Part shown: positions 33,214 through 62,281 of the stretch, in pieces
Position numbering within the stretch: the stretch's first letter is position 1
Layout of the letters: each line of letters opens with the position of its first letter
NCBI GenBank assembly: GCA_973895155.1
Contig: OZ316893.1
Coordinates: 6,720,963-6,784,962, forward strand
Source: Marsupella aquatica
Lineage: Eukaryota; Plantae; Marchantiophyta
Reading direction: 5' to 3'
Length of the DNA: 64,000 bases
Position numbers and translations under genes: made by a program
The notes under the pieces: model-generated
Seen by the model: only the letters and a program-made list of their open reading frames with translations
The model's database searches: none
Told to the model about the DNA's origin: nothing

Positions 33214-33240
33214 TGCATGATATCTAGCCATACTGCTAGC

Positions 33241-36111
33241 ATGTCAGCAGAGGAGCCAAGTCGTAGCAGCTCATCACCACCGACACCCAGGTACCACTTG
33301 CGGAGTGATCCACGACCGTTGGTGCCAATTTCATTGGAGTCTCAACAATTTCAACGATGTCAGCAGACAACAGCAGCACCCACACCACGCAATCCTTCTG
33401 CTACATTTGGCGGTCGCTTCACCACTACCCCGAAGCCTGCTATCGCTTCTCTGCCCTTTACTCCTTTTGCATCACTGATTGTTCCAGCTTCACCAACATA
33501 CAGCATGGATGCCAGTCACTCATTTGGCCGCATTGAGCGCTTCAATGGGCGGCCAGGCATTGTTTCTTTGCGTGAGTTCAAATCCACTTTCTACACTGTC
33601 GTTTACAAATTGGAGTTGAAGTATGGCAGCAACTTCACAAATGCTTTTGCATTTAAGCAGCTAGCCAGGTATGTGCACCACGAGGCTTTGGATGTGTATG
33701 AGCATCATTCTCAACGACTGCTTGCTGTCACACAATTGCCTAACCCTGCCTATGCCACTGCAATTGCGGCTGCCTCACAACTGGCATTACATAATGCCAT
33801 TGCAGCCCATGTTGCTGCTCCTACCACTTCCCCTCCTACTCCAGTTCCCACCACTGCACCAGTTACTCTCACTGTCTTGGCACAGGCTACATCAGGCATT
33901 TCTCCCACCATTGATTTCCCTGCCTTTGCTGATCCAGTGGCTGAGTTTTTCCAGGTTCTTGAATTGGAATTCCCAATCAAGAGTGCTGACAAAATCATGC
34001 AGTTGGCCACCTTTGTGAGGCAGCGCGATGAAACATTGAAGATGCTGTATCACCGGCTTCTCAAGCTGAAGGAAGACACCCAGAGCATCACTGACCTAGA
34101 AGCTGCTCATCGCTATCTTCGCGCATTGGAGGGCACACCAGCTCTCCATTCGCAAGTGTTGCAGCAAGTATTCTTAGAGTTTGGAGATAGCTACACCCTG
34201 CTCAATGTCTATGACACTGCTGAGAAACTTGAGTTGGCCCATGCACATTATGAGGCCAGTATTGCGCGTCCACCGCGATCCAGGTACCAGGCTGCTGCCC
34301 CTACACTGACCACCCCTTCCCGTGTGCCACAGTATGGTTCCAAGACCAAGCCAGCACATGCTGCTTTCATGTTGCCATCTTGCAACTACTATGGTAACCC
34401 TTATCACAAGGCTAATGAATGTGATATTGTTGTTGAGGACCTGTCTTGTGATTTTTGCGGGAAAGTGGGCCACTTGGAGGCAGTTTGTTTTGCCAAATTC
34501 CCCGAGAGGAAGCAGCTACGACAGCAGGCCACTCATCCTGCTCCTGTTTCCACTCCCCCACCAGCTAGGAGGGCTCCTACTGCATCAACTGCTCCTCCTT
34601 CCAGTGGCAAAGCATCTAGTGCCAACAAACCGCCCAAGCAGCAACAGAAGCAACCAGCTCAGAAGGAGGCTCACCACGCACAGGCAACTCAACTCCAGTC
34701 TCTGACTCATGAGTTTGAGTCCCTACGTGCCCAACTTGCCAACATCAAAGGCAAGTCAACTGCCTCTACTGGTCCTTCTCAACCGGCTGGTCACGTGCAA
34801 CCCATCCCTGGCCCAGACACCATTGACAGTTCAGCACCTCTACCCCGCTCTTTCTATGGCTTGCCATTTGATGCTCATATGGGTGAGTGTGTGCTGTCCT
34901 CTGCTCCACAGCCTGGCCTTACAGCAGAATTTTCAGATTCATTCTACCCTTCTTATTTTGCTTACCAGCAGGCTAGTGCTGCCTCCCATATTGCTCCCAC
35001 ACGCTGCATTGTACAGGCTGATGGTCTTGATGCTGGTCCTATGACTAGAGCCAGGGGAGCTCGGGCTATCATGCCCCAATCTTTTCAGCCACTCACACTT
35101 GCTGAAGAGCGCACCTTGTTGGCGAGGGGGGAGGGAGCTGCAGCTACATCCATTCCACCACCAGGTGCTGCTGACATTTCACAGGGAGTTGTTTCTCCTG
35201 AGCTGCTTGAGCATTTCACCTCCGGTATGGCACAAAGGATTCTTACAACTCCACTTTTCAGTTGCCATGATTTACAGCTGGATGCTAGAGCTGTCATCAG
35301 AGCGCTAGAGGGTTCACTGCATTCTTCATCAGCCCCTGTGACACCAGTTTTGGAGGTCCAATCTCATGTACATAGTGGACCTTCTTCTTCTCCATTACAT
35401 GTTTCCACTGGTTTGGCTGCCCCAGTACCGATTGCTGCTGATTGTGTGACCAGAGCTACACTTGATTCTGGTCATGCTGCTCCATCTTTCCTGGCTATGT
35501 TGTTGAGTGGAAAGACCGTGGATACTAACTCCCTTCACAAGGTACCTCATCATTTGCCGAGAGTGGTGCCTAGTGATAGGACTTCAGTTTCCACCACCAT
35601 TGCCATTGTTGACAACAGGAATTCAGTGGTCAAGTTGGAGGGTCACACTCCTCAGGTGGTCATGCTAGACACAGGTGCTCAACCAGTGATATTGGGCATT
35701 CAGTTTGCCAAGAAGATGGGATTGTTGACTGATCATTTACAGTAATCCAGGTGGCACATTCAGACTGCTAGTGGCACTGTGGAGGATGTGCTGGGTGAGA
35801 GTTCTACTTTACTCACTCTCACTTTTAATGGAGGTACAGATCAGGAATTGCATTTCCCAGTCAGATGTTTGGTTACCAATGCCACTACGTATGATGTGCT
35901 CATTGGCCAGGAGGCTTTGTTCCCACCAGGTTTTACCATTGACAATTGGCATGAGCATGCATACTACAGAGTTTATTGGCATACGGATGGCTCACACTTG
36001 GGCTACATTCCACTTGATTTGCATGGTGCCCATACACCTATGGCTCACCACTGTGTGTTGAAAGCAGTGCACACAGCTACCTATGTCAACTACCCATTGC
36101 AGGATTGGATT
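33241..36111 (+). pseudogene. Element B gag-protease (one in-frame TAA at 35743)
   Basis: Gag-like IERFNGRPG...LREFKSTF and QRDETLKMLYHRL; zinc knuckles CNYYGNPYHKANEC (degenerate) and CDFCGKVGHLEAVC; aspartic protease LDTGA (35665-35679), with IQTASG and DVLIG in the same frame after the stop. Confidence 0.85.
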
Positions 36112-36144
36112 CACTAGAAGAATCCGAGGTGAACTGAGACCGCA

Positions 36145-36430
36145 ATATATGACTCATTTTGGCTCATGTGACTTCATTGTGACTCAACGTGACTTGACCC
36201 ACGCTGTGACCCTTGGAGTTGCAAAAGTTGAGACCAAAAAATGGAAGTCACTATTGATACTGGGCTTTGCAACTTGCTTGATACCCATTTGTGACTGATC
36301 TGTGACTTTATTGTGGAGTCTAGCCTTGTTTCGACGTGACTACAATATGACTTCAGCGAGTCACATCGTAAGTCACATACATGACTTACCCGCATTCAAC
36401 AATGACTAGCGTGTGACTATTTAGTGTCAC
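36145..36430. repeat. CACTA subterminal repeats ((G/A)TGACT / AGTCA(C/T)), likely TnpA binding sites
   Basis: More than a dozen direct and inverted copies; similar motifs at 55560-55745. Confidence 0.7.
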
Positions 36431-36966
36431 AGGAGAGACCAATGGAGACCCTGGCCCACGTCACACAACAGAACCATTTGGGACTCTATATACTCATGTT
36501 TATAACTAATAAGGTTCACATGCAAGTTATAACCATGACTAATGAACATAGAGGGACAGTTCATAAGGAGAGAGAGCACTCGACATTACAATACATAGAA
36601 ACCTGATGTTCTAACTTTAGAAATATAACACATTGAATACAAGAAATGAACATAGCATGAATGACATCCACATGAAACAAAGCATCATATAAGCAGATCC
36701 TACATAAAACATTCATAAGAATTAAACACAATCACAATCTTGCTAAAAAATGAAGATCATTTGAATTCCAATGGAATAGTTTACAATGTGATCAATGTAA
36801 TTTAGACAAAACAGGAACTCATAATTGATGACTGTAGGATGAGATAACTGAAAGCACATGCATGATACTATGAATCTCCAAGAGGACATGATTCTTGTAC
36901 TGCTTCTTGACATCTAAAATCTACATAACATGACTCACACTACAAACAAATAATGGCATGACATTG

Positions 36967-39900
36967 TTATGGATCCTCTATGAACTTGCTTGGCCATAAT
37001 ACCAAAGAACCTGCAGCATCTCTAAGTGTCTTTTGAGGAGGATCATCATTTGTGTTTGGAATGGGAAGGACAGCTTTAGGTTTCACTAGTAATGTGACTA
37101 ACACTACTGAATAACCTGGGGGAATCCTCTTGCCATGGAACGTTGTGGAACCAACCTGCACTCTGGCAAATCCTACTCGTGTTCCACTCTCATCAACAGC
37201 TAACAAGCCACTTTGTCCCTCAGCATTAGGTGCTTTCCCCACTTCCACCTTAGATCTTTTTGCCAGCACTGTTCTTGGAGGTTTGTATGAAACCTTTGAC
37301 GTGGCTCTGCTCCCACCAGCAGACTTGCTTCATGTGCGCATGCTTTCTCTCTTCACAGTAGTGAAGCTAGGCTCAGTAGGTTCCTCTGTTAGGACTGTCA
37401 CAGTAGCAGGTTCATCACCTGGGAGTGTCATACCAACTAACTCTTTGGTTGGATTTATCTCAACAAGAGGCACACTTGTCATTGAGAATGATACATTCTG
37501 CAAATCATTTATCTCTGCAATGGAGTCAAGATCTACATAGCATGAATCTGGCTCAATGGTATCATTGTCATGCTTGCTGATATCCTCATTTGCCCCAACA
37601 TTGATATCATCCACTCCCTTGCCAATGTCATCCTCATCCAAACATGGTTGACTGCCCTCTGTCAAACAAGTTGCTTGTACAGACTGCAACTTTGTTGCCT
37701 CTAAATTACAGCGAGTATTTGCCAGGTTCTCATACTTCTTCTCTGTAGCACCTGTCTTATTCTCTATGGACACAACAACCACAATATATGTTACTGAAAA
37801 TAACACATTCAACAAACAATGTCAATTCAAACTATACATTTAATAATCATATCCCACATAGTTGTAAAGGCCTTACCTTCAAGCCTACATGTCTTTGGCA
37901 TGCCAGAAGAGTGCATCGACTTTGCCACCTCAAGTGGTGATGGTGGAACTCCTGCAGAATTAGAATCAATTTTATCTCTCACCGACACAACAGCTTCCAT
38001 TAATGTCTTGAAGTTCACATGGAACAAGTCAGTCAATGAATTCAAACGTTCATTGATCTCTGGAAGACATGTTTCGACAGCCTTCAAACAACCACTTATC
38101 TCTGTAAGTGAAGATCCACCTCCCTACATGACACAGGGGTATAGGTTCAATCACTCCATATGAAATGTTGGGCAATATATGCACAATCAATGTTATATAC
38201 AGTGTACACCTGAAATTCAACACAGGTCATTCAATTACCAATCAGAACTCATATAACTTACATGCTTGGAGGATTCAGATGCACCCTCTTGAGCCCGGGT
38301 GTTCACAATTTCAGCCCTCAACTCTTCTTTTGAAGGGCTTTGCCCCAATTGGGCTTTTTGCACATGCATGGCAAACACAAGTTATCGATCAATATTCAGG
38401 AACGTACACTAAAAAACAAAGTTTACATGTATGGGTTTACACTAAAAAATAGTACATAGTGTAACATAAATTACATAGCTAGGCCATTCATTCTTACCAA
38501 ACGTTTAGCTGCCGGTGCAGTGCCGGTCCTTCCTGTCAAATTAGAGTTCTGAACACTCAACCTGGCCTCGGTCATCTGTGAACTCTTCGTTTTTGAAGCA
38601 TCTGTTACAAAATAAGCTACTAACCTTGCCCACACTTTATCATCACAACTGGCTGGTGGAGGCATATCTGGCTTCTCCCCACCTTCCTTCCAAGCCTTAT
38701 GCATTCTCCACCTCTCTTGCTTGATAATTTTACCTGCTGTACTCTCTAGGCAACCTATGTCCACGCCATCATCACTGCCCACATAATTCCATTTGGCAAC
38801 AACATTTTCACATACAGTCTTCCAATCTTTTGGATGTTGTTTTTTAAAATTAATAACACTCACATCTAACCAACGCAATACTTCAGCTTTCAAATCAGCA
38901 TGCCATCGGTTCTTGCGAGGACACTCAGCATCCACCCATTGTCTCTCATTCAACTTTACGTTCCCTTTCTTTGTCACCTCCCCTCGTGCACTGCTCTCGG
39001 TAGTACTGGGCGTTGTATTGGCCACCCCTTCATTCACCCTACCTGGGGTTCTGAAGCCACCTGGGAAAATACAATGCCATTCATGCTTGAGAACTACATA
39101 TAGCAGAATGGATGACGGCAACATTCAATGCTTCACTTCAAGAAAAATTCTTCAAACATACATACCTGTAGCTCTGCCTGTAGATGCCTGTGCAGGGACT
39201 GCACTCTGAAATTGTTGCGACCCTGGACCACCTGTCCAGCCTAGTACAGGGGCCGGATGATGTCACTTTCTAGGTATGTGTGTGCAAACATATGTACTGA
39301 AAACTAAGTACAAACTGTAGGAAAACAACTGAACATTCACCGACATACCTGTCCCCCTTCCGTGCTGCATCTGCATAGGGGCATTAGTGAATACTTGAGT
39401 CGATGGTTTGACTGTCCAACCTGCACACATACATTTTCTATCATTATACATGTGCAGAGTCCCCCCCCCCCCACGTGAATGGACTCCACATATAATGAGT
39501 TCTTCCATTGCTGACAAGATCAGACATTACCTGCTCCTCTTCCAGCGTTTGTAGGTACTGAATTTTGATATCCCTGCCAATTACCTTCACCACCTTCCCA
39601 ACCTTGTTCATTCCATGACCCACCACCATCCTCCCAACCTGGTTCAACCCATGTCTGTCCTTGTGGACATTGGAACTGATCATTACTAGCATTTGCCCAA
39701 TCAGGTTGGGCAGAATCTGCATGCAATGGCAGGTGGACAGAATTTCATGTTGTCTGAATCCAATACATCCCAAACAATGTCAAAAATTGATATGCAGTCT
39801 GAAATTCAGGAGTGCCATGCCTTCACAAAGAACTGGCATATAGATATATACTCACATCCCCATGGTTGAGGTGGACGTCCATACCCACGAGATTGTGGGT

Positions 39901-42581
39901 TTGGACCTGCTCTGCCTCTACCACGGGCATAACCTAGAGCTTGCCCCCTGCCATAGTATTGGGCACCAGCCTGGGATCTACCACTACTACCACCTTGCCA
40001 ACCTTGATCAGAGGTCAGCCCCCCCTGCTGGTATGGTGCATGCACAGGCTTCGAAGGCAAAACAGAACTGGCAGGACGCTGCATCACATCACCAACTACA
40101 ATGTCAGGAACTAAGCAAGGTACATATGTGTAGTACTGAACATATGAAACCTCTAAACAAGAGTTTTTAACTCAAAACCTTGTTGGGAAAACTACTTACA
40201 TGTTTCTTTTGGGGCTGCTCTGCAATGTATTCATCTTCATAACCCCCATCCTCATCCATTTCCTCTGGAAAATACTCATCATCTGCATCTTCTTGTCTAG
40301 TGTCTGCACCCACCTGTGCAGCATCAATGTCATCTCCACATTCTGCCATTGTAGGTACGACCTTCTTGCTCAACCTGTCACTCCGTGTGATGCCTAGACA
40401 GGAATCACTCGGCCGGTTAAGTGGGTAAAGCAGGAAGGCACCCTAGGAACACCTTAGTATAGTGACAAAACAAGGAAAATATAAACAATTAGGGGCAACC
40501 ATGGAACCCGGGCAGAGGCCGGAGGTAAGGCTGAGGGTGAAAACCCGATTAGGGTTAGGGCGCGTTAAGCGTCGGCGGCTAGGAAGGATCAACGGGAAGA
40601 AGGACCGGCAGAGGAGAGGGGTAAGGAGCGCTTGCAGGAGATGGTGGCTCATTTGCGAGCACGAACTAGGCAGACGACTACGGGAGGCCAACTACTGTCA
40701 GCTGCTTAGGCAAGCACTCGGGAGAGAGTAGATACCGACGATCAACCTAAGGAGGGTATGAGCAACGTCAATCAAGCGGCACATTTCTGGGGATGCCTGT
40801 TCGAACGGGCAACTGAGTACATCAAGACTTACGAGGACGAGGAGTCAGAAAGGGCAGCTCGAGAATGGCAGGAGCTCGCTCGATTGTGGGAGCTGCAGAA
40901 GACGGCTTTCTTAGGAGGCGAACTCATCAAGGACGAGTTCCTGTGGACGCCTACTTCCAATCAACTCGACGATCTTCTGTTTTGCAAAGACAGCGTCGTC
41001 GGCATCCGAGAGGCCATCAAGAACTGCAACGACATACACTGGGAATTAAAGGGTAGCACGGAAAGGTGGACCCGGGCCGTGGTGATCAAGGAGGTAGACC
41101 CAGCACCGACCCCAGACAGGGTCACGGCTAAGGATCCAACTACCCTAGGGGAAGGGGAGGCCGAAGCCGTGGGAGTGGCTGAAGCCGAAGCCGTGGGTAT
41201 TACCGAGGCCGGTGTCGAGGCCGAAGCCGAAGGTGGACCCAGTCAGGCCGATGGAGAGTTGACTCGGTCAAGGGCAGGTAATCTGTCAGTAGGCGGGCCA
41301 ACGGCAGTGGCTGAGGAGGAAGTATTGGGGGCGTCCATTGAGGATCCACCACCGGTGTCGTGACGGTGCAAGGGCGCCGTTCCTTTTAGGGAGGGCGGAC
41401 GTGGAGGGAGGAGGCGTGAGTGGGCAGGGCGGGCACGGATCTCCACGTTTAGGATTAGGATCAGAACCAGGAGCGGCCCTGACACTTAGCTTAGTGGGAT
41501 TGCGGTCCCACTGGTAGGAGCAACACTTGTGCTCCTGCCTTGCTGTACATAGGTAGATTCGGGCAAGTAGATTACTGTTAAGTAGATTAGGCTTACGATG
41601 CAAAGAATGGCGGATCCACTACCAGGATAAGTACCTGGGCAGCGGGGAGCTCAGGGCCTCTTCTTTAGCAAGTTTTTAGTTTGCACCAGCCGGGCTGGGA
41701 TCAAGTAGTACGAGAAGCTCTCGGTTAGTCATACAGTGACCCTTGTGTATATTCATGTTTCCTCATGCCTAAGAGCTGAATAGAGTTGGCCTCACGGCTT
41801 AGTTCGCAGAACTTGTGTATGAGATGTACTGTTTGTATGGCAAGTGCATGGTATGACTCAGTCAGAATGAGTCATTTTGCTATTTGTGTGTCGCATTAAC
41901 TTGTGTGAAGAGTGCCCACATCAACAGAAGGAAGGAAAGTAAGCAGGGGAGTGAGAGTTGGATGTGTCGAGCTGAGAGAGGTCTTAGCGGCTTAACCAAG
42001 CCTATTGGGGATCATTCCGGCGGCGGAATCCAAACATACCTAACAAGACGGAGGGGAAGACAGGGGAAGACAAGGGAAGGCCTATATTAGGCCGGCTACG
42101 TATCTCATGACCCGATGAAGGATCTGTCCAGTATATGTGTGTAAAATGTTAATAGTAGTGGTAGAAGGTTAGCAGCGTCCCATGCCGCTAAGCCGCGGAA
42201 ACGGCCTCGCCAAGCACGAAACCTGCGGGAATCGGCTTGAGCTGGGGGGTTTCTTGGGGTTAGGGAGCCATGGGACGCACCACACTCCGACGCACAGGCC
42301 CAGAGATAGTGCTGGTCACCCTTCTTGCGTACTCCTTTTGTTTCTTTGAAAATGCTGTGGCTCTGCGACATTCCAATATGAGAATACAGTCACAATTTCA
42401 GTGCCACATTGAACTATTCATGTCACACAAACTCAGCGGAGGGGTGTAGTTGAGAATCGTTCCCTTACAATTCAGCCACATCCTTTTCCAGATCCAGTTC
42501 TGCGATTTTGGCTTTCACGTATGCTCGTTGTTCCGTAGCTTTCCTTTCATACTCACACATCTCTGTGTCACTCTGTTCCAT
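36967..42581 (-). pseudogene. Multi-exon TnpA-like gene (Ptta/En/Spm-type and TNP1-like C-terminal domains), interrupted by a solo LTR
   Basis: 38471-39124 reads PPASCDDKVWARLVAYF...KSSQMTEAR...TGRTG; 36967-37269 reads FHGKRIPPGYSVVLV...LPIP...TLRDAAGSLVLWP. The exon frame ...GPVRR|SDRLSKK is continuous across the LTR. The exon structure is only partly resolved. Confidence 0.7.
40386..42284 (+). mobile_element. Family A solo LTR (1899 bp, ~2.74-kb in-frame internal deletion)
   Basis: CTCCG|TGTGATGC...GCACCACA|CTCCG, a 5-bp TSD. Otherwise nearly identical to 57586-62212. Confidence 0.95.
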
Positions 42582-42737
42582 CCTACTGGACCACAAAAAC
42601 ATGTCATCTATGGTCACCCCGTATAACACAATGCAACCACAATCACCAGGCATCCATCCAGACATCTGTGTTGCTTCAGAATTACTTTATTACACATCCT
42701 TCCCCTCACTAATGTCCATGCAAACAATTCACATTAC

Positions 42738-45700
42738 TCATGGCACAGGCACACTGTTGGCATCTGCATCTCTGAATTCGCCTCCTTCAGCAAATGCATC
42801 TACCCTTGTCACAGGAATGAAGTCCCCGGTATCATGAACTACAGGCACTTGGTCTGAACGCCGACAATCAAAGGCACTATGAGAGTGTAAATGAAACTCA
42901 AGGTTTGATCCTTCCATCCGACGTTGCCTGGCCTGTTTATGACACACTACACGCCAACCTGGGGAGTCTTCCACATCCAGGAAGAAAGCTTGCTCCACCT
43001 GACTAGGAAACACAAATGGCTCAGACCATTCGGGAAATTTCCCTCTGAAATTGGCCAGCAAGAAACCGTCGTTGTCTCTCTTCATGGTAGCCCTGTTACC
43101 AAGCCAATCCTGCCGCACCCATGAACCTTTCATAAGAATCACAGGACTGGACACCGCCCCATAGTCTAGAGCCCATATGTCAACTAATTCTCCCACATAT
43201 CCCATCTCCATCCAGGCCCTGTCGTGATTGTGGCTCTGTTGCTCAAATACAGCGATGAGCCCGCAGTCATTCGTCACCCTGTAGGCACTGTCACCATCCT
43301 TCACTCGGAAGTGATTCCCATATGCTCTCATCCGTTTGTAAGTCTTCACTTTCAGGCTAGGGGCATTAGACAGTAGGTAAACATCTGCATCCATGTCTGG
43401 GTGGGTCTCGTGATGCTCTCTAATTGCCACTCTGATCCACTCCATGAAACCTGGAAAAGTTGTTCCTGCAGTGGGATGGGCCGCCTTCAATGACTCATAC
43501 TCCCTGAACGAACAACCACACAGCATTAGCTTGGGTAAACATGAACAGGCTGAAGGAGAAAACCACACGAACACAACATTTAAGCTCATGAACTGGATTA
43601 TAGCACATGTATGCACTCACTGTATCCAGGGTTCCATCACCACAGTGTTGTGCAATACAAAGTCATGTGCCAAGTCTCTCATAGATATGGTCAGGTTCTT
43701 TGTGGTTGCAGCCCCTTCCAGTACTTCACCTATCACCCCTTCCTCCTCATCAGAATTCCACACCCTGGTCTTCACATGCTCATATTGTGCTATGTATTCG
43801 GTCAGAAATCTCAGAGTCTCATCCTTGATGTAACCTTTAGCCATGCTTGCTTCAGGTTTGTAATATGTTCTCACGTGACCTTTGAGTAGCTTCATGTACC
43901 GTTCCAAAGGGTACAACCAACGAGCACTCACAGGCCCAAATTGGTGTAGCTCTTCCACAACATGGACAAGTAGGTGGGTCATGACATCAAAAAATGCGGG
44001 AGGAAAATAAATCTCCAGGTCACAGAGCACCTGAGCGACATCTTCTGTCAGTTGTGGGAAGTGTGTTTCATCCCAAACCTTCACACAAATACGATGAAAC
44101 ACATCACTGAGTCGCATGATCACAGTACGAACAGGCTTCTGCAACAGGCCCCTCAGGCATAAAGGCAACACCTGTTGCATCAACATATGGTAGTCATGGC
44201 TTTTCATACTACCAAGCTTTCTAGTCATGATATGCTTCTTGAAAGCACTGCCATAGTTTGAAGGAACCTTCAAAGAACTCAACCTCTGCACAAATAGTTC
44301 CCACTCTGTATCTGTCAGAACATAGGGCGCTTGGTACTTCAAGAGCACATCAGCTCTGTGGGCATGTGGCCTCAACCAAAGATGGGGTTTCATTCCCCTC
44401 TGTTCAAGATCCAATCTCACTGAACCAGTGTCTTTCTCTCCACACAAGAATCTGAGTAGACTCTCACAAATATTCTTTTCAATGTGCATAACATCAATGT
44501 TATGTTTGCTTGGCTCAAACTCCTGCATCGTTGCAATGCAAAAGCGTCAGGAAATGCCTCAAGTTTAGTCTCTCTCTTCGAAATGAATGCACATGCTCTG
44601 AACCAAAACATGTATCCCAATTAGCATCAACTCCAAGAGGCTTACCCTCCAGTACTTGAGCTCCAAGTCCAATATGCTCAGTCTTTTTACACCATATCGC
44701 TTTATTGGATCACTCACTCCATCTTCCCTGCCCCCTCGTTTGATATAGTCATCCCTTAGTGCTCCCCACTGCCTGATCTCCTCTTTGGTCACTCGTGCCG
44801 GGGGTCCACGTTGCTCAATCTCATTGCCAAAGTGTGCAATCAGTGCCTGTCTTTCTCTGTAAGGGTGATCTGCCTTCAGAAAACGATGATGGCCCATGTA
44901 TATCACTTTCTGCAGGGCTCTGGAGTACTCACTGGTGACATTGCGCCCACAGATAGTACAAGCACAATATTCTTTTGTTGTTTGGCTTGATATCATCCCA
45001 TGGGCTGGGTAGTCAGCTATAGTCAGAATGACAATGGCTCTAAGGATGAATGGGTTTAACCTCCCAAGCCTCTGTAGGACATCATATGTGAGAACTCCTT
45101 CCTCCCAAAGCTTTCTCAATTCCTCCACTAGGGGAGCCAGAAACACATCTATGTTGGCAGATACAGCACTGTCTGGCCCTGGTATCAGTAGGACCATCAG
45201 AACAAAAAATCGCTTTGTAATCATCCAAGGAGGAAGGTTATAATTCAAAATAGTTACAGGCCAACACGAAAATTTGTTGTTCTTGTCTCCAAATGGGTTT
45301 ACCCCATCCAATGATAGCCCAAGTCTGACATTCCTTGGCTCAGCAGCAAATTCGGGATACATCTCATCTATGAGTTTCCATTGCCTTGAATCTGCAGCAT
45401 GTCGTTGTAGCCCATCATCACTTTTCTTGTCAGTTGCCCAAGTCATCATCTCCGAGATGGCACGGCTTCTGAACATCCGCTGAAGTCTGGGAATGAGTGG
45501 AAAATGACGAAGTACCTTGGCGGGAACCATAGACTTTCCTGAGTTCCGATACCTGTGCTTCCCACACTTAGGGCATGTCAACGATTCTTTATACTCCTTT
45601 CTGAAAAGAACATGCCCATCAGGACAGGCATGGATCGAATCATAGTTCAATCCAAGATTAGATATGCATCTTTTTGCCTCGTACATGTTCTTGGGCAAAA

Positions 45701-46901: not shown

Positions 46902-47774
46902 TCACTCTGATTCAGAATCGCTAATGACCCATTCCTCACTTGTTGTCTCATAGTCCTCTCTGTAAGGATCCTGACCCTTCCGTGGCCAGGCCTCAAAAAG
47001 ATCATAGTCCATTGGGTTTTGATGCTTCCCAGCTGCTACTGATTCCACAAGCCAAGCATATGAAACCACAAACACATTATGGGACATGACATAAAAGTGA
47101 ATGTCTCCCTTCCCAAACTTGCGGCAGGCTTTGGGATATGACTTAGTAATGACATGAGTGGTGTCCTCTGTTATATTCTCCTCCACTGTCCCACCTAGGT
47201 CAAGCACTGTGGACTTGTACACTTTGCACTTAACCTCTCCAATTCCCGCCTCCACAAATACCATGCTCAGCCCTTTCAGAATGGGGGTTGGTTGCTTCGT
47301 CTCCTCAGCCAACATACTCTTCAGCCTTGTAGAGCTCTGTCCTTTGTTGAGTACAGGTCCATATTGGAGATCAGCAAGCCGTGCCTTTGTTTCCCAGACT
47401 TCTTGTTCAACCCAAGCTGATGCAGTAGCTTCTTCATCCTCCCACAACTCATATTGCTCAGTATCCTGTACAATCTTATGTGCTATGGAATCTGTGATCC
47501 AAGAGGCCTCAACTACTTTTAGGCCTTGCTTAGTAATTGCAGAATTCATGTAGGACCATGACCACTTCTTTATCACTGATAGCCATGTCCCTGCAACAAC
47601 ATGTGTAGTCTCTGGAGTGATGTCCTGAACTACAGTGCCATGGAGCTCAGAGAATCGTTTCTGTATAGTTGGCCAATGCACTTTGGTCAACCCATGCTGG
47701 CCATGGACCAAAATCGCTCTGACCCCTGTAAACACTGCTGGGTGGTCACACTTTCTATGTTTACCAGGCTCCAT
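46902..47774 (-). CDS. Tandem BRCT-domain protein (~290 aa), CACTA cargo
   Basis: Two repeats: FTGVRAILV...LHGTVVQDITPETTHVV...VVEASWITDS and LKGLSMVFV...LGGTVEENITEDTTHVI...VVSYAWLVES. Intact ORF. Confidence 0.85.
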   Translation of the reverse strand: MEPGKHRKCDHPAVFTGVRAILVHGQHGLTKVHWPTIQKRFSELHGTVVQDITPETTHVVAGTWLSVIKKWSWSYMNSAITKQGLKVVEASWITDSIAHKIVQDTEQYELWEDEEATASAWVEQEVWETKARLADLQYGPVLNKGQSSTRLKSMLAEETKQPTPILKGLSMVFVEAGIGEVKCKVYKSTVLDLGGTVEENITEDTTHVITKSYPKACRKFGKGDIHFYVMSHNVFVVSYAWLVESVAAGKHQNPMDYDLFEAWPRKGQDPYREDYETTSEEWVISDSESE

Positions 47775-48367
47775 GTACACACACCCTACGTGATGACAGT
47801 GAATTTTGGAAGAATGGGTTCACCTGACAATACAAGGACAACAAAATTCCTGCTTTTTGAGTTGATCTGGCCCACTGGTGCTCAGGTCCGATTTTGATAG
47901 GTACAAGGGATATGTGAACAATACGTACTAGGCACCTGCACGGATGCAGGACATTGTTTGAATATATACTACAAAATCCATATCCGTGGTGAAATGAAGT
48001 GCAACCAACTTGTCATGGCACATACATATTTTGTTGTAAAGGAGGATACATTCAAATGACAAACTTATAGGGAAATTTGATTAATTGCATGCCTGATAAT
48101 TTATACGCTTACAACTTAGAAGTCCTGTTTTAATTTAGCAGTCTGATGAAAGTGTTTATGAAAATGACCACTCAGCCTAAATACTTCCAAGAAGGCTTGT
48201 AAGGATAAGTTTGTATAGGCATGTACCCAGCCACTGACGCCAGAGCACAAGATAAGTGCTGCCTATATAAACTCGCCTACCCAACTCCTTTTCAAAATTG
48301 GAATCTCTGCAATCTCAAAAAATAGTACATCCACATCAGGTGCACTGTGCATGTACAATGTTCAGCT

Positions 48368-49048
48368 TCACAGCCAAGATATGTGATCTCTCACAGGAGT
48401 GCGCGAGGTAGGATCAATGGCATGGCGATGACAATAAAATATCCATCGATCAACACCATGTGCAGAGTGATCATAGATTTCTCTGTCACAAGCATAACCC
48501 TTTGCTTGATGATCTTTCAGGCAATGATAGTGCCACATAGTGGGACACCTAGCACAGTGGACTATGTCAGTCCAGTAGTCATCATCATGCTCACCACATG
48601 CCTTGCACCTATGAAGTGGGCAAGCTGTGGCATGAGCAGGCAAACACTCAAAACAGAAAAATCTCACACAAAAACGGTCTAGACATTTCCTAACATTTGC
48701 TGCAGCATCAACAGAGCCCTCATAGGACCCCAACTTCCCACACTGTGCACACTTAGCCTGCTTCTCCAAACAATCAGTGCACATCCAGTCTCCCTGGTGT
48801 GTTGACGGGAGGCCCACCCCTGGACAGTTGTTTTCTGTAGCAAGGTCAGACTCCGGGTTGAGGTGGAAATGCCTCATGCAAGGGCCCTCACAAATGACCA
48901 GGGCCCCACCATCGTCACAAATGGCACAACAATGAGCTGCCTTCTGGAAAATCTGACTTGCAGAGAAGTTAGTAGCATCTGCCCCAAGTACACCTGTGTT
49001 TCTCACCTCTGTCACACGCTTTTTGGCTTGAATTTTAGGCCGTGCCAT
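48368..49048 (-). CDS. EDM2/NSD-like tandem PHD-finger protein (226 aa), CACTA cargo
   Basis: CAICDDGGALVICEGPCMRHFH...CTDC...CAQCGKLG...CPLHRCKAC...CARCPTMWHYHCL...YCHRHAIDPTSRTPVRDHI follows the layout of the plant EDM2 PHD region. Confidence 0.8.
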   Translation of the reverse strand: MARPKIQAKKRVTEVRNTGVLGADATNFSASQIFQKAAHCCAICDDGGALVICEGPCMRHFHLNPESDLATENNCPGVGLPSTHQGDWMCTDCLEKQAKCAQCGKLGSYEGSVDAAANVRKCLDRFCVRFFCFECLPAHATACPLHRCKACGEHDDDYWTDIVHCARCPTMWHYHCLKDHQAKGYACDREIYDHSAHGVDRWIFYCHRHAIDPTSRTPVRDHISWL

Positions 49049-49059
49049 GCCTGCGCATG

Positions 49060-49203
49060 AGATAGACTCTACAATTTAGCAGACTGCACAGAAAGTAAAA
49101 TATATTTAGCATTTAAGGTACAAAGGCATTTAGATAGACTCTACAATTTAGCAGACTGCACAGAAAGTAAAATATATTTAGCATTTAAGGTACAAAGGCA
49201 TTT
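49060..49203. repeat. Perfect 72-bp tandem duplication
   Basis: agatagactctacaatttagc...caaaggcattt occurs twice. Confidence 0.9.
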
Positions 49204-49818
49204 GCTACTGCAATGAATTGGAATGGCCACACAAGGATGCAGAGCACACATACTTTTGGTATGTTGAGTCCACACACAAAACTGATCCCCTAATACAATT
49301 TCTCCACCAACACCTCAATTTTAATTGTGGCTATGATTCACCAAAGGAGATCTGCAACAACATTTCATGCATTTGAATCACATACAATAGTCGTGACATG
49401 TAAAACAGGCATTCTTCGAAGAGGATTGGTATGAAGCAGTGTCATAAGGGTTGAAATTTATACATCCTAAATAGGTTATGATAGTGGCTGAGACAAATAA
49501 GTGAGGCATAAATCATTTTGCATATTATCACATGGCCCATTAATTCATTCAACGTTGCAATGTTCACCAGGTTAAAGCAGTCATGAAAGCAGTCTTTCAA
49601 TAGAGACTTTTATGCGAGTTTGCTAGCCTCTTAAATTAGGATATTTTGCTTAGTGCAGGCATAATAGGATATAAGTTATGTACTGTTGACCCTAAACCCT
49701 GGACCCAAAATTGCTCATACATCAAAATTTTAAGTAAATATCCTCTATGTTGAAGTCAGAGTGTTAAGCTATAGGTCAATGGTATCTGGTCTGTGCATGC
49801 GGTGTGACAAGTGGTCCT

Positions 49819-50283
49819 CTAGAGCATGTGATCCAAACATGTGTAGACACCAAAGTCACCGGTGGTGGGGTCTGGGAGGGCAGGACAAGTGACATCACCA
49901 GGCACACTGCAGGATGGCGAGTGGTTCCAGATGATACATTGTGCTCTGTGCAAAAATCGGCATCCAAGAGAACGGTCATCCAATTCTGGGCCAGAAGCCC
50001 TACAGGCAGGACAGTCATATTGGCAACTGTGTACACACCCTTGGCACCTAATTTGTGGCGGGTCATGTACAAGAGACACAAATACCAAGGATGTCGGGAA
50101 GGGTACTGAAGCAGGTAGAGGCTGGCTGTAGTTGTTCCTGGAAACAACAGGGTACTCAAAGTACCATGCAGACTGGGCTGGAAGGATCCCAAGTCTGACA
50201 TACTCAAGGCGCAACATCTCTGCCTTGCGTGCAAGTCGTACATGTTCAGCGTTGCGGGTCCTCACCATAAGTGTTGCTTTCAT
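49819..50283 (-). CDS. Hypothetical Cys/His-rich protein (154 aa), CACTA cargo
   Basis: ATG-started intact ORF co-oriented with the other CACTA genes; CQGC..CQYDCPAC...C..H..C..H...C pattern. Confidence 0.45.
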   Translation of the reverse strand: MKATLMVRTRNAEHVRLARKAEMLRLEYVRLGILPAQSAWYFEYPVVSRNNYSQPLPASVPFPTSLVFVSLVHDPPQIRCQGCVHSCQYDCPACRASGPELDDRSLGCRFLHRAQCIIWNHSPSCSVPGDVTCPALPDPTTGDFGVYTCLDHML

Positions 50284-51279
50284 TGTGATGTCCTCTGTTC
50301 ACGTCCTTTGATGAGCAAGGTGAGCAGGAGGTCGACTTGCCTCGCCAACAGCAACCACCTAAACTAATCAGTTCCCACTCATTGTCTTGGTTCCAACTAC
50401 AGGTCATAGTATACACATAGCATGAAACGTGCATAGTACATATTTGATTCTGAGTTTATGAGTTTCCTAAGACAAAGAGCTTGGTGATAAACCCATATTC
50501 TCGACGGACATGTATATCAATCATATTAAACTCCTGTTTTTTCATCCAGAAAGACCGAAAGTCTCACCTTGCAGGTTGCAGCAGAGAGAAAATTCACTGG
50601 TTGTCGTGTTGTGCAAGTGAACCTCCACTGATGCCCCGGTGTAGCCCCTCAGATGCAGGTGACACTTACCAACTCCCAAGTTGCCTGGTCTAACAGAAAA
50701 TGCTTAATATATCTTCAGAACTTTATAGAGCAAGTACATGATCACATACTTCTGGATCTATTCATATTTGGAACTCTTGCCAACTACAACTCCCATTATG
50801 CACAAGCTCACATCAACAGAGAAAGATACAGAATGCATACTTACTATGGCTCTAAGCACCTTCACTACCTTGTTGAACCCAGTCCTGAAGTCTTTTCAGC
50901 GTGTTTGTTGTGCTGTCTCCTTTGGCACCCAACACCTTAGTCCTTGATGTAACAGAATGCGATTTTACAAGTTAGATGCTTTGGAACCTTCTATGGTCTT
51001 AGCTGAATTGATGTCATCGTAAGTGGTGAAAGACAAGGAAGACGAAAGCTGGTTGAAGAGCTGTGGACAACACACTAGCATGAAGTGCTTCAACCAATCC
51101 ACTGCCAAACGGAACTCTTACACAGTCACATTCTTTTAGTAAACAAAAACTCAGTCAAACTTCAGAATCAAAGTACAGACTCTGAAGGACCAAAGGAGGA
51201 TGTTGTGAGTTTCTCTGTTGTTTAATGTGTTACCCTTCTAGTTTCGAAGTTAGCAAATGCTGAATAATGTGTCTACCAG

Positions 51280-51622
51280 ATCTTCGAAAAGAAGCCCACC
51301 ACAATTAAGAACTTCGGTATCTGGGTCCACGTATCAGAGTCGTACAGGTTATCACAACATGTACAAGGAATATTGTGATACCACAAGAAACGGAGCTGCA
51401 GAGCAGATGTATGATGAGATGGCTTCTTGTCATAGAGTTCGGTTCCCTTGCATCCAGATCATGAAGACTACGACATTCCCTGTCTCTCTGTGCAAGCGAG
51501 AAAGTACCAAGCAGTTCCATGATTCAAAGATCAAGTTCCCCTTGACGTACTGCAAGATTCAACCTCCATTGCGAAAGCTAAAGACGACTTACAAGGCCAC
51601 CAAGCCCAACACAATTGTTTGA
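51280..51622 (+). pseudogene. RPL18A: Captured last exon of 60S ribosomal protein L18a (eL20), frameshifted
   Basis: After a cag| acceptor it reads [15 protein letters not shown], then a +1 shift, then [38 protein letters not shown]...[18 protein letters not shown]...[11 protein letters not shown]. Confidence 0.9.
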
Positions 51623-52808
51623 GTAGTGCGGGTGCAGGTTCCCAATTTTGAGACAATTTGGCTCATTTTATGTCCCGAGGGAATCCTGGAGTTTATGTAT
51701 TGAGTTTCTAGGTGAAGATGCTTAATATAAGGAAATTCAATTATCACTTCGTTCCCAACTTCTATTAATTGAAAATACACAAGCTGGAAGCAAGAAGACA
51801 AGCCACAATCTAGCATCTTAGCCAAACACAATCGTCCCGACAAAGCAAAACTCAGCTGGACAGAAGTCACTCGGATCCACAAAAAATTGAAGATTCACCT
51901 CCAAGCCGGAGGCTGATCACTTCAGTACAGCAGCTTCTAGACGGAACAAACTCTGCTCAGCCCCACAGAAACACAAATGTTAAGGCTCCAAGTCAGAGCT
52001 CACAAACAGAAACTCAGATAAATAACATTCAAAATCTGTCCAGGTTTGTGCAAAGTGTACATATTCATTCTTCTGGAATGAACACGCAATGCATACATCA
52101 CCTAGACACAGTCATTATAAATCATTGGGCGATTGGGGACCACTAAGCAGGTGTGTTCCTATTTCGAGGCTACAAGAAAGGATAGAGTGACACCAAACTC
52201 AAGAGTACACCAAAAGAAAAACAGCAAGAACCAAAGTCAATCATGTGTGGATAAACTGCACATGGGAAGTTCCCCTGAAGAAGCATCAGTTGCTAACATT
52301 GTCACCCGAACCACACCTAGTTTATTACCTCAATGTCTTCAGCCTCAATATCCAATCCTCAGCCCCCTGGTGCTTCCGTGTTTGTTCTGAAAATTTCTGT
52401 GATGAAATAATTATTCAATACATTCAATAGGAGTTCAGACAATCTGAAGAGGACTTTGGACTTGAATGGGGGACAGCGTGGCCATATAGTTATCCTTGTG
52501 GCCTTCAGCTACGTGTCTCACGCTGAATTTCACTTTCCAGTTTCGAGAGTTGTGAAGGTCTAGTTTTAGTAACTTCCTCCTGACTCGACTTGGGAGCATT
52601 CTCTGTATTTGCTAGCTTGTAGTTAGCTTTGACTCCTTTCAGCTTAGTTGACGACCCTCTTGAGATATTAACAATTAGAACAAACACAAGTTGTCAAGAC
52701 AGATTCCACCGGAGCAAAAAGTCCAAAACCAGGTGAATGAAAACCTAAGGAGAGTCCATAAGAACGAAAGTAGGAAGGCAGGCGCACGGGCCACCGAGAA
52801 AAGTAAAG

Positions 52809-52969
52809 GATGCATGTCATTAGTGGGGAGGGATCTTAGCAAAAGCAGGGGAAAGCAAGGGAACTTGCGGCTAAAATCAGCTGAAAGATGCATGTGATTA
52901 GTGGGAGGGATCTTAGCAAAAACAAGGGAAAGCAAGGGAACTTGCGGCTAAAATCAGCTGAAAGATGCA
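52809..52969. repeat. ~78-bp tandem duplication
   Basis: gatgcatgt.attagtggg(g)agggatcttagcaaaa.ca.gggaaagcaagggaacttgcggctaaaatcagctgaaa occurs twice. Confidence 0.85.
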
Positions 52970-55779
52970 CAGTTCCTAGAAATGTAGTGAACCTTAAGGT
53001 CGTCTGTTCACCCCCCCACCCCATCGCCGGGCACAAGGCATGTTCTGATATAGGGAGGAGCAAAACAATCATGTCAAGCAAGAAGTGTGGAGAGACCAAT
53101 CTGTAAGCAAAAATAGGGGAGAACATACATACATCAGCAGCAACAGGAAACAAGAAAGATGAGTTCAGAAAGCATCTTAGGGTCGGGGACATCACTGCAA
53201 CACCGGGACTTAGGATATGACTTGTTCTTAATCTGTTGATAGCATCCGGTAGGCCGGCAACCCATGGCAAAAGGGCAGAGCAGCAATAACAGTTTGAATC
53301 TGACGGATGAAGCTCCAGGCAAATGAGCTCCAGGCGATTGGGTGCATGATTGAGCAGGCGATTGTAACAGCAGGCACCAGGTAATTTAAAGGAAGCAACA
53401 TTCGGCAATGGACCTAGGCAGCTCACAAATTTTGCTTAGCAGCGATGTCACTAGACCCTAAACACGCAATGCATACATCACCTAGACAACTATACTTGCA
53501 GTCACGAGGTGAGTCCGCGTCGATAGGGGATTGCAGCCTTACCTGTGCCGATGTAGCACCAAGCCGCCCTAACTGAAGCTGCGTAGCAATCCGCAGCAAT
53601 CGCTCAATGCAAAACAAGTCCCCGGTTGGCCTTGCAGCCCGATCATCCACCTTCAACCCTGCCACCAAGCAATGAGCTCTCCGCTGTTGCTCACCCTAAA
53701 CCTTCAACACTCCCGCAAAGTTGTGTCTACCCGCAAGATTGGGTGCGTGATTGATTCGGCGATTGTAACAACAGGCAGCCGCAATCGGTCGCAGGTCATG
53801 GATACACAAGCTCCAATGTGCTCCCTTTAGCTGAAACAATACCAGTTGTCGCTCACCACCAACACTTTCAGCAACAACACATATTTGTTGTAGTCCGCAC
53901 CTTAAACCTTAGCCATGGGGTGGTCAATCAAGTTCCGCAATGCCTAAAACACCGACCACCTGACTTACATGAAATGTGCACACAGCTAAGCTCACCTGCA
54001 GCTCACGCCAACCACATTGGGACAATTGAAGTGAATACTGCCATAGCTGAACTCGACTCCTCGTGACTCTTTCGCGCCTCCGTAGACTGCCTTACTCACA
54101 GTGCCCAACGCAAAAAAAGGCCCGGTCAATGTTGCAGCCACGATGATCCACCTCACGCTAGATAGTTGGCCTTCAAGATCACTCCCCACTTTCTTGCAGC
54201 TCCCCGGCCCTCCACAGCTCCTCGTCCATGGCAGTGCTGCAAATCAATAAGCTCTTGGTTGTAGCTCCTCAGTTGTCGGTCACAGCTGCAACAACAGAAG
54301 CTCGTAACCTTACGATGGAAACCCGGAAAAAGCACCTTCCTGCTTGCCAAAGAGCGACACTGTCAACACTCAACGAACGACACTTTGACTCAGTTTCTCC
54401 GAATAGTTTTGGAAACAATTCGTAGACTGAGAACGAGGAATAGGGTTGTGGTATGCATTGGACAAGAAGTCAGTGAGTGAGGTAGTCGACTCTCGGCCAC
54501 AAAGAGCAGAAGACAAATCAGACGAGCATGAAGACCCCGACAACAATGACATATCCAGACGACGAGCAGGGACTTACGCAATAAAGTCTAGCCTTGATCA
54601 AGCACTGCTATTGCACCTGCCTGCCATCACCATCTCTCAAGCGAGAGTGAAGTCCGTAAAGCTCCTTGCACAAAACCCTTCACAAAACCTTCAGGCACGA
54701 TGAATGTCCCCGGCCGACAGCAGAATGGACAAGCTAGTTTTTCCCTAAACCGAGTTCCCGCGCACATTCAACTCAACTTTGCACTCTGCTGCCGTGTTAA
54801 ACAAAACCCGCGCACCCTAAACTTGTGTCCAAAGGCACACTCACGCACATTGAAGTGGAGACATTGAAAGCACAAAAGAGACACAAAAGTCTATGATTTG
54901 CCTAATTAGTTTTTTCCTTTGAAACCAAAGGACTTACGCAATAGTTATATGTGGGGTGAGTGGTTAGTCACAACTTTGAACCACCCCCTTTGGTGAAAAT
55001 GTGGCCAAATAGTCAGGTATATATGACCCCACATTACCATTATGATAAGTACACTTTTTTAGGGTTGGGGTAGTGAAGAGCTGATCATATATATTTAAGT
55101 TGGACATTTAAGTTGGACTTATATTGAACATGAACCATGCATTGGTTGTCATATATGAAGGGGGCATGGGAAACATGAAGGTTTATGGGGCATGGCAATA
55201 AGTAAACCCAACCTAGCTACATGTGAGGCTGAAATTGGGTGATAATTAAGCACCTTTTTGGCACGACCAGAAGACGGCGATAGAAAAATTAGAGATTGAC
55301 TACAAAAAGCATTAAGTTAGGTTAGCAAGCTTTGACAAATCCTTTGTGCAGTTGAATGGGGCTGGGGCGCGCTTCATGGTGTCTAAATGGGGGCAGGAAT
55401 AATGATGGAATACTCAGTAATGGTTTCAAATGGTATGACCTGACTATAATTAAATCTATGTGGGATGACATATGGTGTATCCAAAATCATATGTATTGGG
55501 TTAGATCCCATACTTTAAGGTTGAAGGGCTCAAATGTTGTGCTCTCATAAGTTGTACTCTAATGTAGAGTCGCTTGTATGACTTCAACCTAATTGCCTTA
55601 ACTGAGTTATAGTTACAACTTCCCTAAAAGTTGTAAACATGACTCCTCAAAACTTCACCAAAACTCAGTCAAGAAGGTGTGACTAACATGACACCAACAA
55701 CTTTGGAGTCGCTGTTTCATGAAGGTCTCGGACAAGTCACGTTCTTTGTGGTCTCAGAAAGGGTGGGTTTCTTCTAGTG

Positions 55780-57585
55780 ATTGAGGAGGATGATGATGAG
55801 GTGGCTACTGCACATGCTGCTGCACGTATAGCAACACTTTCCAGCAACGTGGATCATCAACCAGAGGTGGTACAACGGCTCCAAGCAGCCCATGGACCTT
55901 TGGTGGCTGCATTGCGCAAATTTGAGGATCTTGGGCAGCACAATGGCCAACCAATAGCCCCAATCTTGAGCGCACCAGTTACATGGACTCCTCCTTCAGA
56001 TGGCCTTACATTGCTTGAGCTTTTTGGTGGCATTTCTACAGGCCTGGAAGCTCTCCTACAGTCTGGTATGGTGGTGAAGCAGTACATCTATGTGGATATT
56101 GATCCAGGTGCAAGGCAAGTGTCTGAATCCCGTCTGCTGGAATTTTCAGAGCGATTTCCCCAGCAGTTTCCACACAGTGCATGGAAGTCTGCATTTTCTT
56201 TCTTTCCTCCAGATATCCAGCTTGTCCAGCACCGGCACTTAACCCTTCTTGGCTCCCTTGATTTGATCATAGCTGGTTGGGAATGCCAAGGGTTGTCAGC
56301 TGCTGGTCACGGTGCTGGACTGCATGATTCTCGTTCTGGCCTTTTCACAGCATTGGTTCAGATTCTCACCTGGGCTCAATCCCTTCATCCTGCTATTGGT
56401 TATATCATTGAGAATACTCCATCTCAGTTTGACCAGCGTCCACAGGTCAAAGAGGATTTCAGTGTGGTCCAACACCACTTGGGACCACCCCTTCTCATTG
56501 ATGCCGTGCATTGTGGTTCTTATGCACATCGTCTTCGTAACTTTTGGACTAACCTTGCACCACCTTCCTTGTTGGAGTTAGCTCTTCACCACACATCCAG
56601 GGACACTAACCTCACAGTGGACCAGATTTTGGATCCTGACAGCTCTTGCCAACCAATTACACGGCAAGAGCCAGCACCTTGGTATCCAGCCAATACCATT
56701 GGACAGCCCCGTGCTGCTTGGCCTACATTTGTATCCTTTCCAGGTGCACATGCCTTTCAGGGTGATGGTCCTGGCCTGGTTTATCGACATTCTACCGGTA
56801 CTTGGGATGAACCTAGTCCTGAGGAGAGAGAACGGGCTATGGGCTTCCAATCCGGTACTACAGGTCACACCCAGATCACCAGGCTGGCCAGGAATGCTTT
56901 ACTTGGCAGGGTAATGGATCTTAATGCTCTCACTTGGCTTCTGGTCACTTGCATCCTTTTTCAGATGTACATTCATCCAGCATCTGGAGTTCCAGCTCTA
57001 CCACTCCATGGTGCTGCTACATGGCATCCCGACCAGGTGCACTTACCTCTATTCAACACTCACCGCTTCAGTCCAAGTGTTGGGGGGGAGGAGGTCCCTT
57101 GTAATGTGGCTGATATTATTTCTGAGTTTCATGGTGTGGACCAATCCAGATCAGCAGGTACAACAGGCCTTGGAGAGGCCTCATCACCTTATCAGCAGCA
57201 TGCTAGCAGCTTGGACAGTGGAGAGGCTAGCACTTCTGGCTCTTCAAGTACGAGTACATCAGGTCCTATTCCTAGTGTTGCCAACTACACATTCATCATG
57301 GGCAACCACCTGAGTAAAAGACAGAAGGACCAGCTGCTGAATTTGCTCCTCAAGCATGAGAATGTGTTTGCTTTCTCTATGAAGGACTTGGGTACGTGCA
57401 AGACTATGCAGTTCTCCATTGAGTTGGCTGATGAAACACCTATCTTCAGGCGGAGACACCGTTTGAGTAAGCATGAGTGGTAGCTGGTGGATGAGAGGTG
57501 CCAAGAGTTATATGAAGCTGGCCTTATTTAGCCATCTACATCAGATTTTGCAGCAGCTACAGTGATGCCAGCAAAGAAGGATTCC
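55780..57585 (+). pseudogene. Element B pol continuation: DNMT3-like C5-cytosine methyltransferase domain (~56005-56940) followed by the start of gypsy RT
   Basis: Motif I LELFGGISTG, II YVDID, IV AGWECQGLS, VI IIENT, VIII AHRLRNFWTNL, IX ERERAMGF, X ARNALLGR. Then LLKHENVFA...FSIELADETPIFRRRHRLS..E and AGLI*PSTSDFAAATVMPAKKD, with stops at 57481 and ~57529. Confidence 0.88.
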
Positions 57586-62234: not shown

Positions 62235-62281
62235 GCATTTCTTAAGCCGTGAGATATGAAGTTAGAACGGAAGCGTAGGTA

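Follow-up and report, generated by a model that had tools for sequence, protein, structure and literature searches.

A DNMT3-like methyltransferase domain in a split-repeat Gypsy-type retrotransposon family with land-plant relatives, found through an interrupted copy in Marsupella aquatica

The window analysed here is a 64,000-nucleotide (nt) stretch of the liverwort Marsupella aquatica (assembly GCA_973895155.1, contig OZ316893.1, positions 6,720,963 to 6,784,962 of the forward strand; coordinates below are those of the window). It holds a dead copy, interrupted three times, of a multi-copy Ty3/Gypsy-type retrotransposon family whose polyprotein includes a DNMT3-like C5 cytosine methyltransferase domain. 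The element is of an already described kind, and what is added is its land-plant range and a testable replication model for its split ends. Cytosine methylation silences transposons in plants, and a land-plant transposon family that carries a methyltransferase of the de novo type, maintained by purifying selection, is a tractable test of self-marking of complementary DNA (cDNA). Judging from sequence, we consider it probable, on balance, that this is a split-repeat Gypsy family whose methyltransferase methylates its own new cDNA.

A DNMT3-like domain in an interrupted polyprotein gene

Once a CACTA transposon at 36112–55779 (minus strand) was removed, the window copy read in a single frame on the plus strand through Gag (33241–35574), protease, DNMT3-like methyltransferase and the start of reverse transcriptase (RT). 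A sequence-only reading of this DNA had proposed that a 19.7-kb CACTA element splits the polyprotein gene, and this was borne out by terminal inverted repeats that match perfectly over 11 bp and at 74% over 35 nt (no inverted pair within 36000–55900 is longer), an ATT target duplication (36109–36111 and 55780–55782), TnpD-type domains and identical codon phase on either side. Residues 1–882 of the protein relative P0001 aligned to 33505–36114 and residues 881–1214 to 55780–56784, with no gap at the CACTA break, and P0036 and P0070 (Calypogeia fissa) were likewise continuous over it. The same reading had described one frame from Gag to RT, which holds for the phase across the CACTA but not for the frame itself, as there are in-frame stops at 35743 (TAA, protease), 57481 and 57529 (both TAG, RT start). 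Because of these stops and the truncation of RT at 57586, the polyprotein cannot be made from this copy. About 100 codons of RT are left (57280–57585; residues 1336–1439 of P0002 match 57268–57585 at 51%, E 2.5e-24) before the long terminal repeat (LTR) of another Gypsy element, E2, and the 3' part of the methyltransferase element would lie outside the window, past the E2 insertion.

Gag begins where the Gag of relatives begins and matches P0001 at 58%. Of its CCHC knuckles, also put forward earlier, the second (34447–34488) is intact, but the first (34381–34422) is damaged, with Tyr for the second Cys. The aspartic protease and its spacer (35575–36111, DTGA at 35668) match the protease part of P0070 at 72%; the match of the window protease to Pfam Asp_protease_2 (E 0.0076) fell under the cut-off.

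The methyltransferase block at 55780–57480 translates without stops, as had been stated. Within it, the domain proper (55960–56970, plus strand) matched PF00145, the C5 methyltransferase profile suggested as a check, at 24.1 bits against a curated cut-off of 22 (E 2.9e-5). Every one of the 26 PDB sequence matches was DNMT3A, DNMT3B or DNMT3C, and comparison with family profiles placed DNMT3A (E 1e-26) ahead of entry 4onj (E 8e-15), which we take to be a DRM domain. The four motif parallels to DNMT3 that had been named were all present in the alignment to PDB DNMT3 sequences. A structure model from a 55-sequence alignment reached a predicted local distance difference test (pLDDT) score of 95.7; an earlier model from an 11-sequence alignment (pLDDT 46) was not used for fold search. 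Foldseek gave DNMT3A as the best match of the model (E 3.4e-19), and the best fold among 48,161 chains was DNMT3B (Z 29.4, root-mean-square deviation 2.6, 277 aligned), with M.MpeI at Z 25.0, M.HhaI at Z 23.4 and DNMT3L at Z 11.1. On these matches and this model, the domain is a C5-methyltransferase fold whose closest solved sequence and fold are those of DNMT3.

"DNMT3-like" is used here for likeness in sequence and modelled fold, not for established descent from a host DNMT3. Nine records of marine phage methylases, from Vibrio, Pelagibacter and Croceibacter phages, also matched the domain weakly (E 4e-8 to 9e-5; L081, L082), so a phage-related origin is possible. Atlas matches fell only into PF00145 clusters, of which one was streptophyte and two were rich in phages, and the origin was not judged from them; the methyltransferase tree was built by a quick method rather than the careful one. 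The domain is without introns.

The S-adenosylmethionine-binding motif I (56023), the catalytic Cys (56284), the motif VI Glu-Asn (ENT, 56410) and both Arg of motif VIII (AHRLRNFW, 56524) are intact in the window copy, all on the plus strand, and are mostly kept in decayed relatives; the catalytic Cys was retained in 79 of the 80 relative loci introduced below, and C109, Q110 and E151 were at least 90% conserved among 55 diverse sequences. In C5 cytosine methyltransferases the consensus catalytic dipeptide is Pro-Cys. The motif set had been called complete, and its members do occur in order, but the catalytic motif reads GWECQ, without Pro before the Cys. Glu precedes the catalytic Cys in the window and in 75 of the 80 loci, a trait of the clade; Pro-Cys is present in other relatives, and Glu-Cys recurs in many algal-type relatives.

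Relatives, range and selection

Two protein searches returned 68 relatives, 33 of them longer and 35 of similar length; named entries from Calypogeia (a leafy liverwort), Sphagnum, Marchantia, Closterium and Monoraphidium were among them. Identity to the window was 67% for Calypogeia, 54–61% for Sphagnum and 38% for Marchantia entries. A metagenome scan over 40 of 64 parts gave at least 495 related stretches, and locus counts throughout use the best 80 of these, selected by methyltransferase match; these loci were nearest to Sphagnum entries (median 76–81%). Protease lay upstream in 75/80 loci, RT downstream in 63/80, and integrase with a C-terminal PHD was present in 36/80, most of the loci short of integrase-PHD stopping at contig ends. 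The best PDB matches of this PHD were the chromatin readers CHD4, KDM5, KMT2 and UHRF1. Two proteins, P0002 and P0004, are unbroken polyproteins of 2,350 amino acids with protease, methylase, RT, RNase H and integrase; PHD is found in P0002 and not in P0004. The integrase family rve is present and a recombinase family absent in both polyproteins, the loci not having been scanned for a separate recombinase reading frame. Among viral contigs, 26 pattern matches included no relative of the element. None of 20 listed runs was an RNA data set, which carries no information on expression.

Since the loci had been chosen by their methyltransferase, a search with RT-RNase H only, blind to that domain, was run to offset this choice. 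Of its 117 matches, the 16 at 49–56% identity carried the domain (15 by PF00145, the 16th by a weak match), and no methyltransferase domain was found in matches at or below 44% identity. In an RT tree with 13 outgroups picked from 99 domain-free rows, all 32 methyltransferase-bearing RTs fell in one clade (support 0.95); the best RT match was Ty3. The domain appears to have moved within this one RT clade. In a subclade of P0031 and 13 other proteins, the same methyltransferase sits between RNase H and integrase, and P0031 (Monoraphidium) adds PHD and Tudor domains. In P0091 (Closterium), a copia-type Gag domain is joined to the same methyltransferase, possibly an artefact of gene modelling or else a second host element.

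The sequence-only reading would have been undone by the lack of any C5-methyltransferase profile or structural match, or had other copies of this Gag and RT lacked the domain; neither is the case. That the domain is a chimera formed once, or a captured host DNMT3 fragment limited to the window copy, can be practically dismissed: it is refuted by the 68 related proteins, the at least 495 related stretches, the single RT clade and the intronless domain.

Selection, another check that had been suggested, was estimated from the ratio of nonsynonymous to synonymous substitution (dN/dS) between the window and the relative loci, all pairs sharing the window's branch. The ratio was ~0.10 for the methyltransferase (60 of 80 loci usable), 0.145 for the protease (44/44), 0.10 for Gag (9/22) and 0.07 for the RT start (7/59). 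Overall, these sequence comparisons indicate that the methyltransferase domain is family-wide, is under purifying selection and has relatives in land plants. Many bryophyte and algal "DNMT3" gene models are pieces of transposons (e.g. the Calypogeia, Marchantia and Sphagnum entries).

Split repeats, a replication model and its rivals

Copies with LTRs had been expected, but the relatives have no paired, ordinary LTRs. Instead, they follow the plan A-body-B-A-B or A-body-B, where repeat A is ~290 bp and repeat B ~176 bp. Among 34 3' ends (not deduplicated), 13 were B-A-B, 19 were B only and 2 were B-A. Both ends were reached in 15 of 19 rows, with a TG start in 15/15 and a CA end in 14/15. A 4-bp target duplication was exact at 10 of 13 distinct sites (two same-site duplicates removed) and had one mismatch at 2 others. 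The gap between B1 and A2 was exactly 2 nt in 15/15 rows, giving a CA-nn-TG junction, and 28 of 29 distinct copies had a G-tract directly upstream of B1. The 12 nt 3' of A1 are complementary to a site within A; the complement reached at least 11/12 in 12 of 27 distinct copies as against 0 of 675 control 12-mers, and a TATA-like box lay 32–34 nt before the self-complementary site in A in 27 of 31 relative rows. Of 13 rows, 10 had an exact A2/B2 joint; the joint was imprecise in the other 3, two of which had lost a shared dinucleotide. In a further copy, L015, A2 ran into the tail of B, with a deletion at the joint.

Within 7 copies, identity was 86–92% for A1/A2 and 88–95% for B1/B2; between copies, A averaged 84 and B 90. 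As the within-copy and between-copy ranges overlap, these values date nothing firmly. A full copy (L016) and a short one (L027) occupy the same insertion site. The A-body-B copies are not assignable to integration, because some of them, at least, arose by later recombination or by collapse in assembly.

The start of the window element had been placed at 33241, and its true 5' end, located through the self-priming signal, proved to lie 9.3 kb farther upstream, at 23893. Here begins repeat A (23893–24254, plus strand, starting TG), which scored 182 against repeat A of the relative L003; 300 random window stretches had a mean of 92.7 and a maximum of 165.5. Contigs of 4 public runs split into unlike flanks exactly before 23893 (agreement 0.42–0.54), which is the pattern of many insertion sites. 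A loose end before A ended like the B of relatives plus two bases (1/4 runs), and a loose end after A began like B (3/4 runs). From these B-nn-A and A-B junctions, the window's family has the same split-repeat plan as the relatives. Directly 3' of A is a primer-binding site of self-complementary type (24255–24266, plus strand), at the same position as in relatives and complementary at 12/12 positions to 24094–24105 (plus strand), the predicted 5' end of the RNA and its self-primer, where the transcription start is inferred. This pair differs from the moss-type pair of L003 at two positions, compensated on both sides. The 5' untranslated leader (24267–24555, plus strand) was joined from 24555 to 33238, by the Gag start, in one contig in each of 3 of the 4 runs, skipping 8682 bases. 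LTR finders will miss a family of this design.

We propose a model in three steps. It is highly probable that the RNA starts inside A1 and uses its first 12 nt, in the way of Tf1, as the primer for reverse transcription, and that the G-tract primes the plus strand, so that the cDNA would be B.A-body-B.A, its LTR halves permuted. This permuted LTR, B-nn-A, follows from the primer site directly after A and the purine tract directly before B. For the second step we see an even chance: the integrase attachment sites would be the internal CA-nn-TG junction rather than the cDNA ends. The latter have no TG..CA pair; that pair sits at the junction. A cut by integrase at the left junction, insertion of the two ends so made and ligation of the old cDNA ends (A2/B2) would give A-body-B-A-B with a 4-bp duplication. 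Since a cut at either junction should also give A-B-A-body-B, which no 5' end showed (see below), this step needs an asymmetry, possibly because the left junction is both completed and captured ahead of the right one. If the internal-junction model is true, it is an integration route whose only precedent in the literature found, in its accessible text, is a retroviral side reaction.

For the third step, which we hold as likely to be right as wrong, the methyltransferase would be made together with RT and freed by the protease beside the new cDNA, where it would place 5-methylcytosine before insertion, so that the cDNA would resemble methylated host DNA. Recognition of histone tails at the target would fall to the PHD on the integrase. 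Self-methylation has been proposed for DIRS by de Mendoza and colleagues (PMC5890265), and it is likewise the likeliest use of the domain here. The sequence-only reading had envisaged release by the protease, packaging into the virus-like particle and methylation of new cDNA, which is plausible.

Several observations weigh against this reading. A TATA-like box is absent before the primer site of the window copy, the target duplication is absent at 1 of 13 sites (L008), and 5' ends with B upstream (A-B-A-body-B) numbered 0 among 32 distinct ones, of which 30 extended far enough for it to be seen. The dN/dS values are limited by dS near saturation and by a stop in the matched stretch of 79 of 80 loci. 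Glu stands before the catalytic Cys throughout most of the clade, and the related Klebsormidium nitens domain, that of KnitGypsy-Dnmt3, did not methylate in yeast, although DNMT3B failed there too and its authors call the result inconclusive (PMC5890265). The CpG observed/expected ratio was 0.23–0.29 in the window copy, 0.56–0.67 in E2 and 0.27–0.42 in the CACTA, and the coding part of relatives (0.39) was less depleted than their flanks (0.25). CpG depletion had been considered as a sign of self-methylation and was set aside, being confounded by age and host methylation and also low in the CACTA. Separately, CpG is kept in the 5' leader, with a ratio of 0.88 (L003 5958–6899 and 13 other loci).

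The domain may instead be kept for binding or structure rather than catalysis. Like DNMT3L, it would then bind cDNA or RNA or organise the replication complex, as suggested by Glu-Cys in place of Pro-Cys, both in the clade of the window copy and among many relatives of algal type, by the inactivity of the Klebsormidium domain in yeast (PMC5890265) and by the lack of a CpG footprint beyond host levels. We judge this unlikely, as the catalytic residues have survived in the window and, for the most part, even in decayed relatives, C109, Q110 and E151 are conserved over diverse sequences, and the modelled fold is far nearer to active DNMT3 than to DNMT3L. Alternatively, the enzyme could be active on nuclear chromatin alongside the integrase-PHD; its substrate would then be the DNA at the insertion site or, as self-silencing, the integrated copy, instead of free cDNA. 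Such a role would suit the integrase-PHD fusion present in 36 of 80 loci, whose PHD is closest to chromatin readers, and also the second clade, in which the domain lies between RNase H and integrase. In the window's clade, however, the domain is at least 900 residues from the integrase and flanked by spacers near protease and RT, and the many copies and the CpG-rich leader fit poorly with immediate self-silencing; we find this quite unlikely.

The remaining rival concerns the ends only. Templated strand transfers have been proposed for the split repeats of DIRS-type elements, and here the repeats could be rebuilt by such transfer from an RNA running into B2, through a circle with one usable junction and no end-joining. 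This would account for the single orientation and for the exact A2/B2 joint in 10 of 13 rows. By contrast, the two priming signals (primer site following A1, G-tract preceding B1) place the cDNA ends exactly at A2/B2, the three imprecise joints and L015 resemble products of end-joining, and the polyproteins have a DDE integrase and no tyrosine recombinase, with 4-bp duplications at insertion sites. We regard templated transfer as a minor but real possibility, and retain integration at the internal junction as the working model.

More tentatively, and with rather less than even confidence, the clade, which spans green algae, liverworts and mosses, may be a distinct Gypsy replication type, combining self-priming, a permuted LTR, internal-junction integration and cDNA methylation. 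If so, it would explain the DIRS-like repeats of KnitGypsy-Dnmt3, previously without a mechanism.

Known systems and neighbouring elements

The kind of element is not new. The sequence-only reading had itself mentioned retrotransposon-borne DNMTs in charophyte algae and dinoflagellates, and KnitGypsy-Dnmt3 of Klebsormidium nitens already has a Dnmt3-like domain in a Gypsy Pol, and shares an intronless domain, DIRS-like A-coding-B-A-B repeats with Gypsy domains, and purifying selection (de Mendoza et al. 2018, PMC5890265). Unlike it, the window's family has its close relatives in land plants (Calypogeia, Sphagnum, and a separate Marchantia lineage). The accessible text on KnitGypsy-Dnmt3 describes neither a priming signal nor a PHD, and neither a target duplication nor a model of integration, and the two were compared by description only (PMC5890265); no named Klebsormidium sequence was among the matches of the protein searches, including that with RT-RNase H. 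SymbioDIRS-Dnmt3 of Symbiodinium likewise follows the A-coding-B-A-B plan, bears a Dnmt3-like domain in its Pol and performed de novo CG methylation in yeast, but uses a tyrosine recombinase where the window's family relies on a DDE integrase and makes 4-bp target duplications (PMC5890265).

As in Tf1/sushi and the plant element Tcn1, the primer-binding site is complementary to the predicted RNA 5' end and not to a transfer RNA. Tf1 and Tcn1 have ordinary LTRs, and Tcn1 is a chromovirus, whereas in this family the repeats are split and permuted, and the polyprotein adds a methyltransferase and, behind the integrase, a PHD (PMC4600332, PMC6317226). No chromodomain of the Tf1/Tcn1 type follows the integrase in P0002 or P0004, and neither contains the chromo family. 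The words PHD and methyltransferase are absent from the accessible text of a plant survey of self-priming elements. Among Ty3/Gypsy traits, the order protease-RT-RNase H-integrase with a DDE integrase (in relatives), TG..CA ends and a 4-bp duplication are all present, while two full direct LTRs around the body are not.

A precedent for the proposed cut is found in foamy virus, where a DDE integrase cuts a palindromic internal LTR-LTR junction to give processed ends; that junction arises from circularised normal ends, whereas the one in the window's family is fixed and inherited (PMC1180852). The EpiLTRs of Cymbomonas and Euglena similarly combine an LTR element with a cytosine methyltransferase and a chromatin reader, but there the methyltransferase is a sister of DNMT4 and is accompanied by a DAM and a chromodomain, unlike in the window's family (bioRxiv 10.64898/2026.05.21.726589). 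The same preprint lists "streptophytes (Gypsy-DNMT3)" as a separate known case, in which land plants may be included. We found no report of a land-plant member or of the terminal mechanism in the literature searched, which covered few subscription papers.

The other interruptions of the window copy involve E2. The block at 24556–33237 (minus strand) consists mostly of nested E2 Gypsy pieces (LTR pieces, integrase, RNase H), recognised by self-comparison, Pfam, the contig joint and a loose end at 33240. The LTR inserted in RT (57586–62212, plus strand) belongs to E2, which is unrelated to the methyltransferase element, and was identified by self-comparison; the E2 Gag comes next, in an open reading frame at 62279–63706. 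At 4.6 kb, the E2 LTR (57586–62212; also 25026–31257) is unusual for an LTR, and its long frames at 57647–59749 and 59750–61300 had no Pfam match besides coiled-coil noise. A solo E2 LTR within the CACTA (40386–42285) is internally deleted, has a 5-bp duplication and is 98–99% identical to the LTR at 57586.

Upstream of TnpD, the CACTA encodes at 46902–49075 (minus strand) two BRCT domains (E 1.6e-14) and NSD-like PHD fingers (E 3e-5, below cut-off), together a chromatin/repair-type cargo in a DNA transposon. Outside these elements, a 1040-codon open frame at 7804–10926 (plus strand) had a weak DUF688 match below the cut-off.

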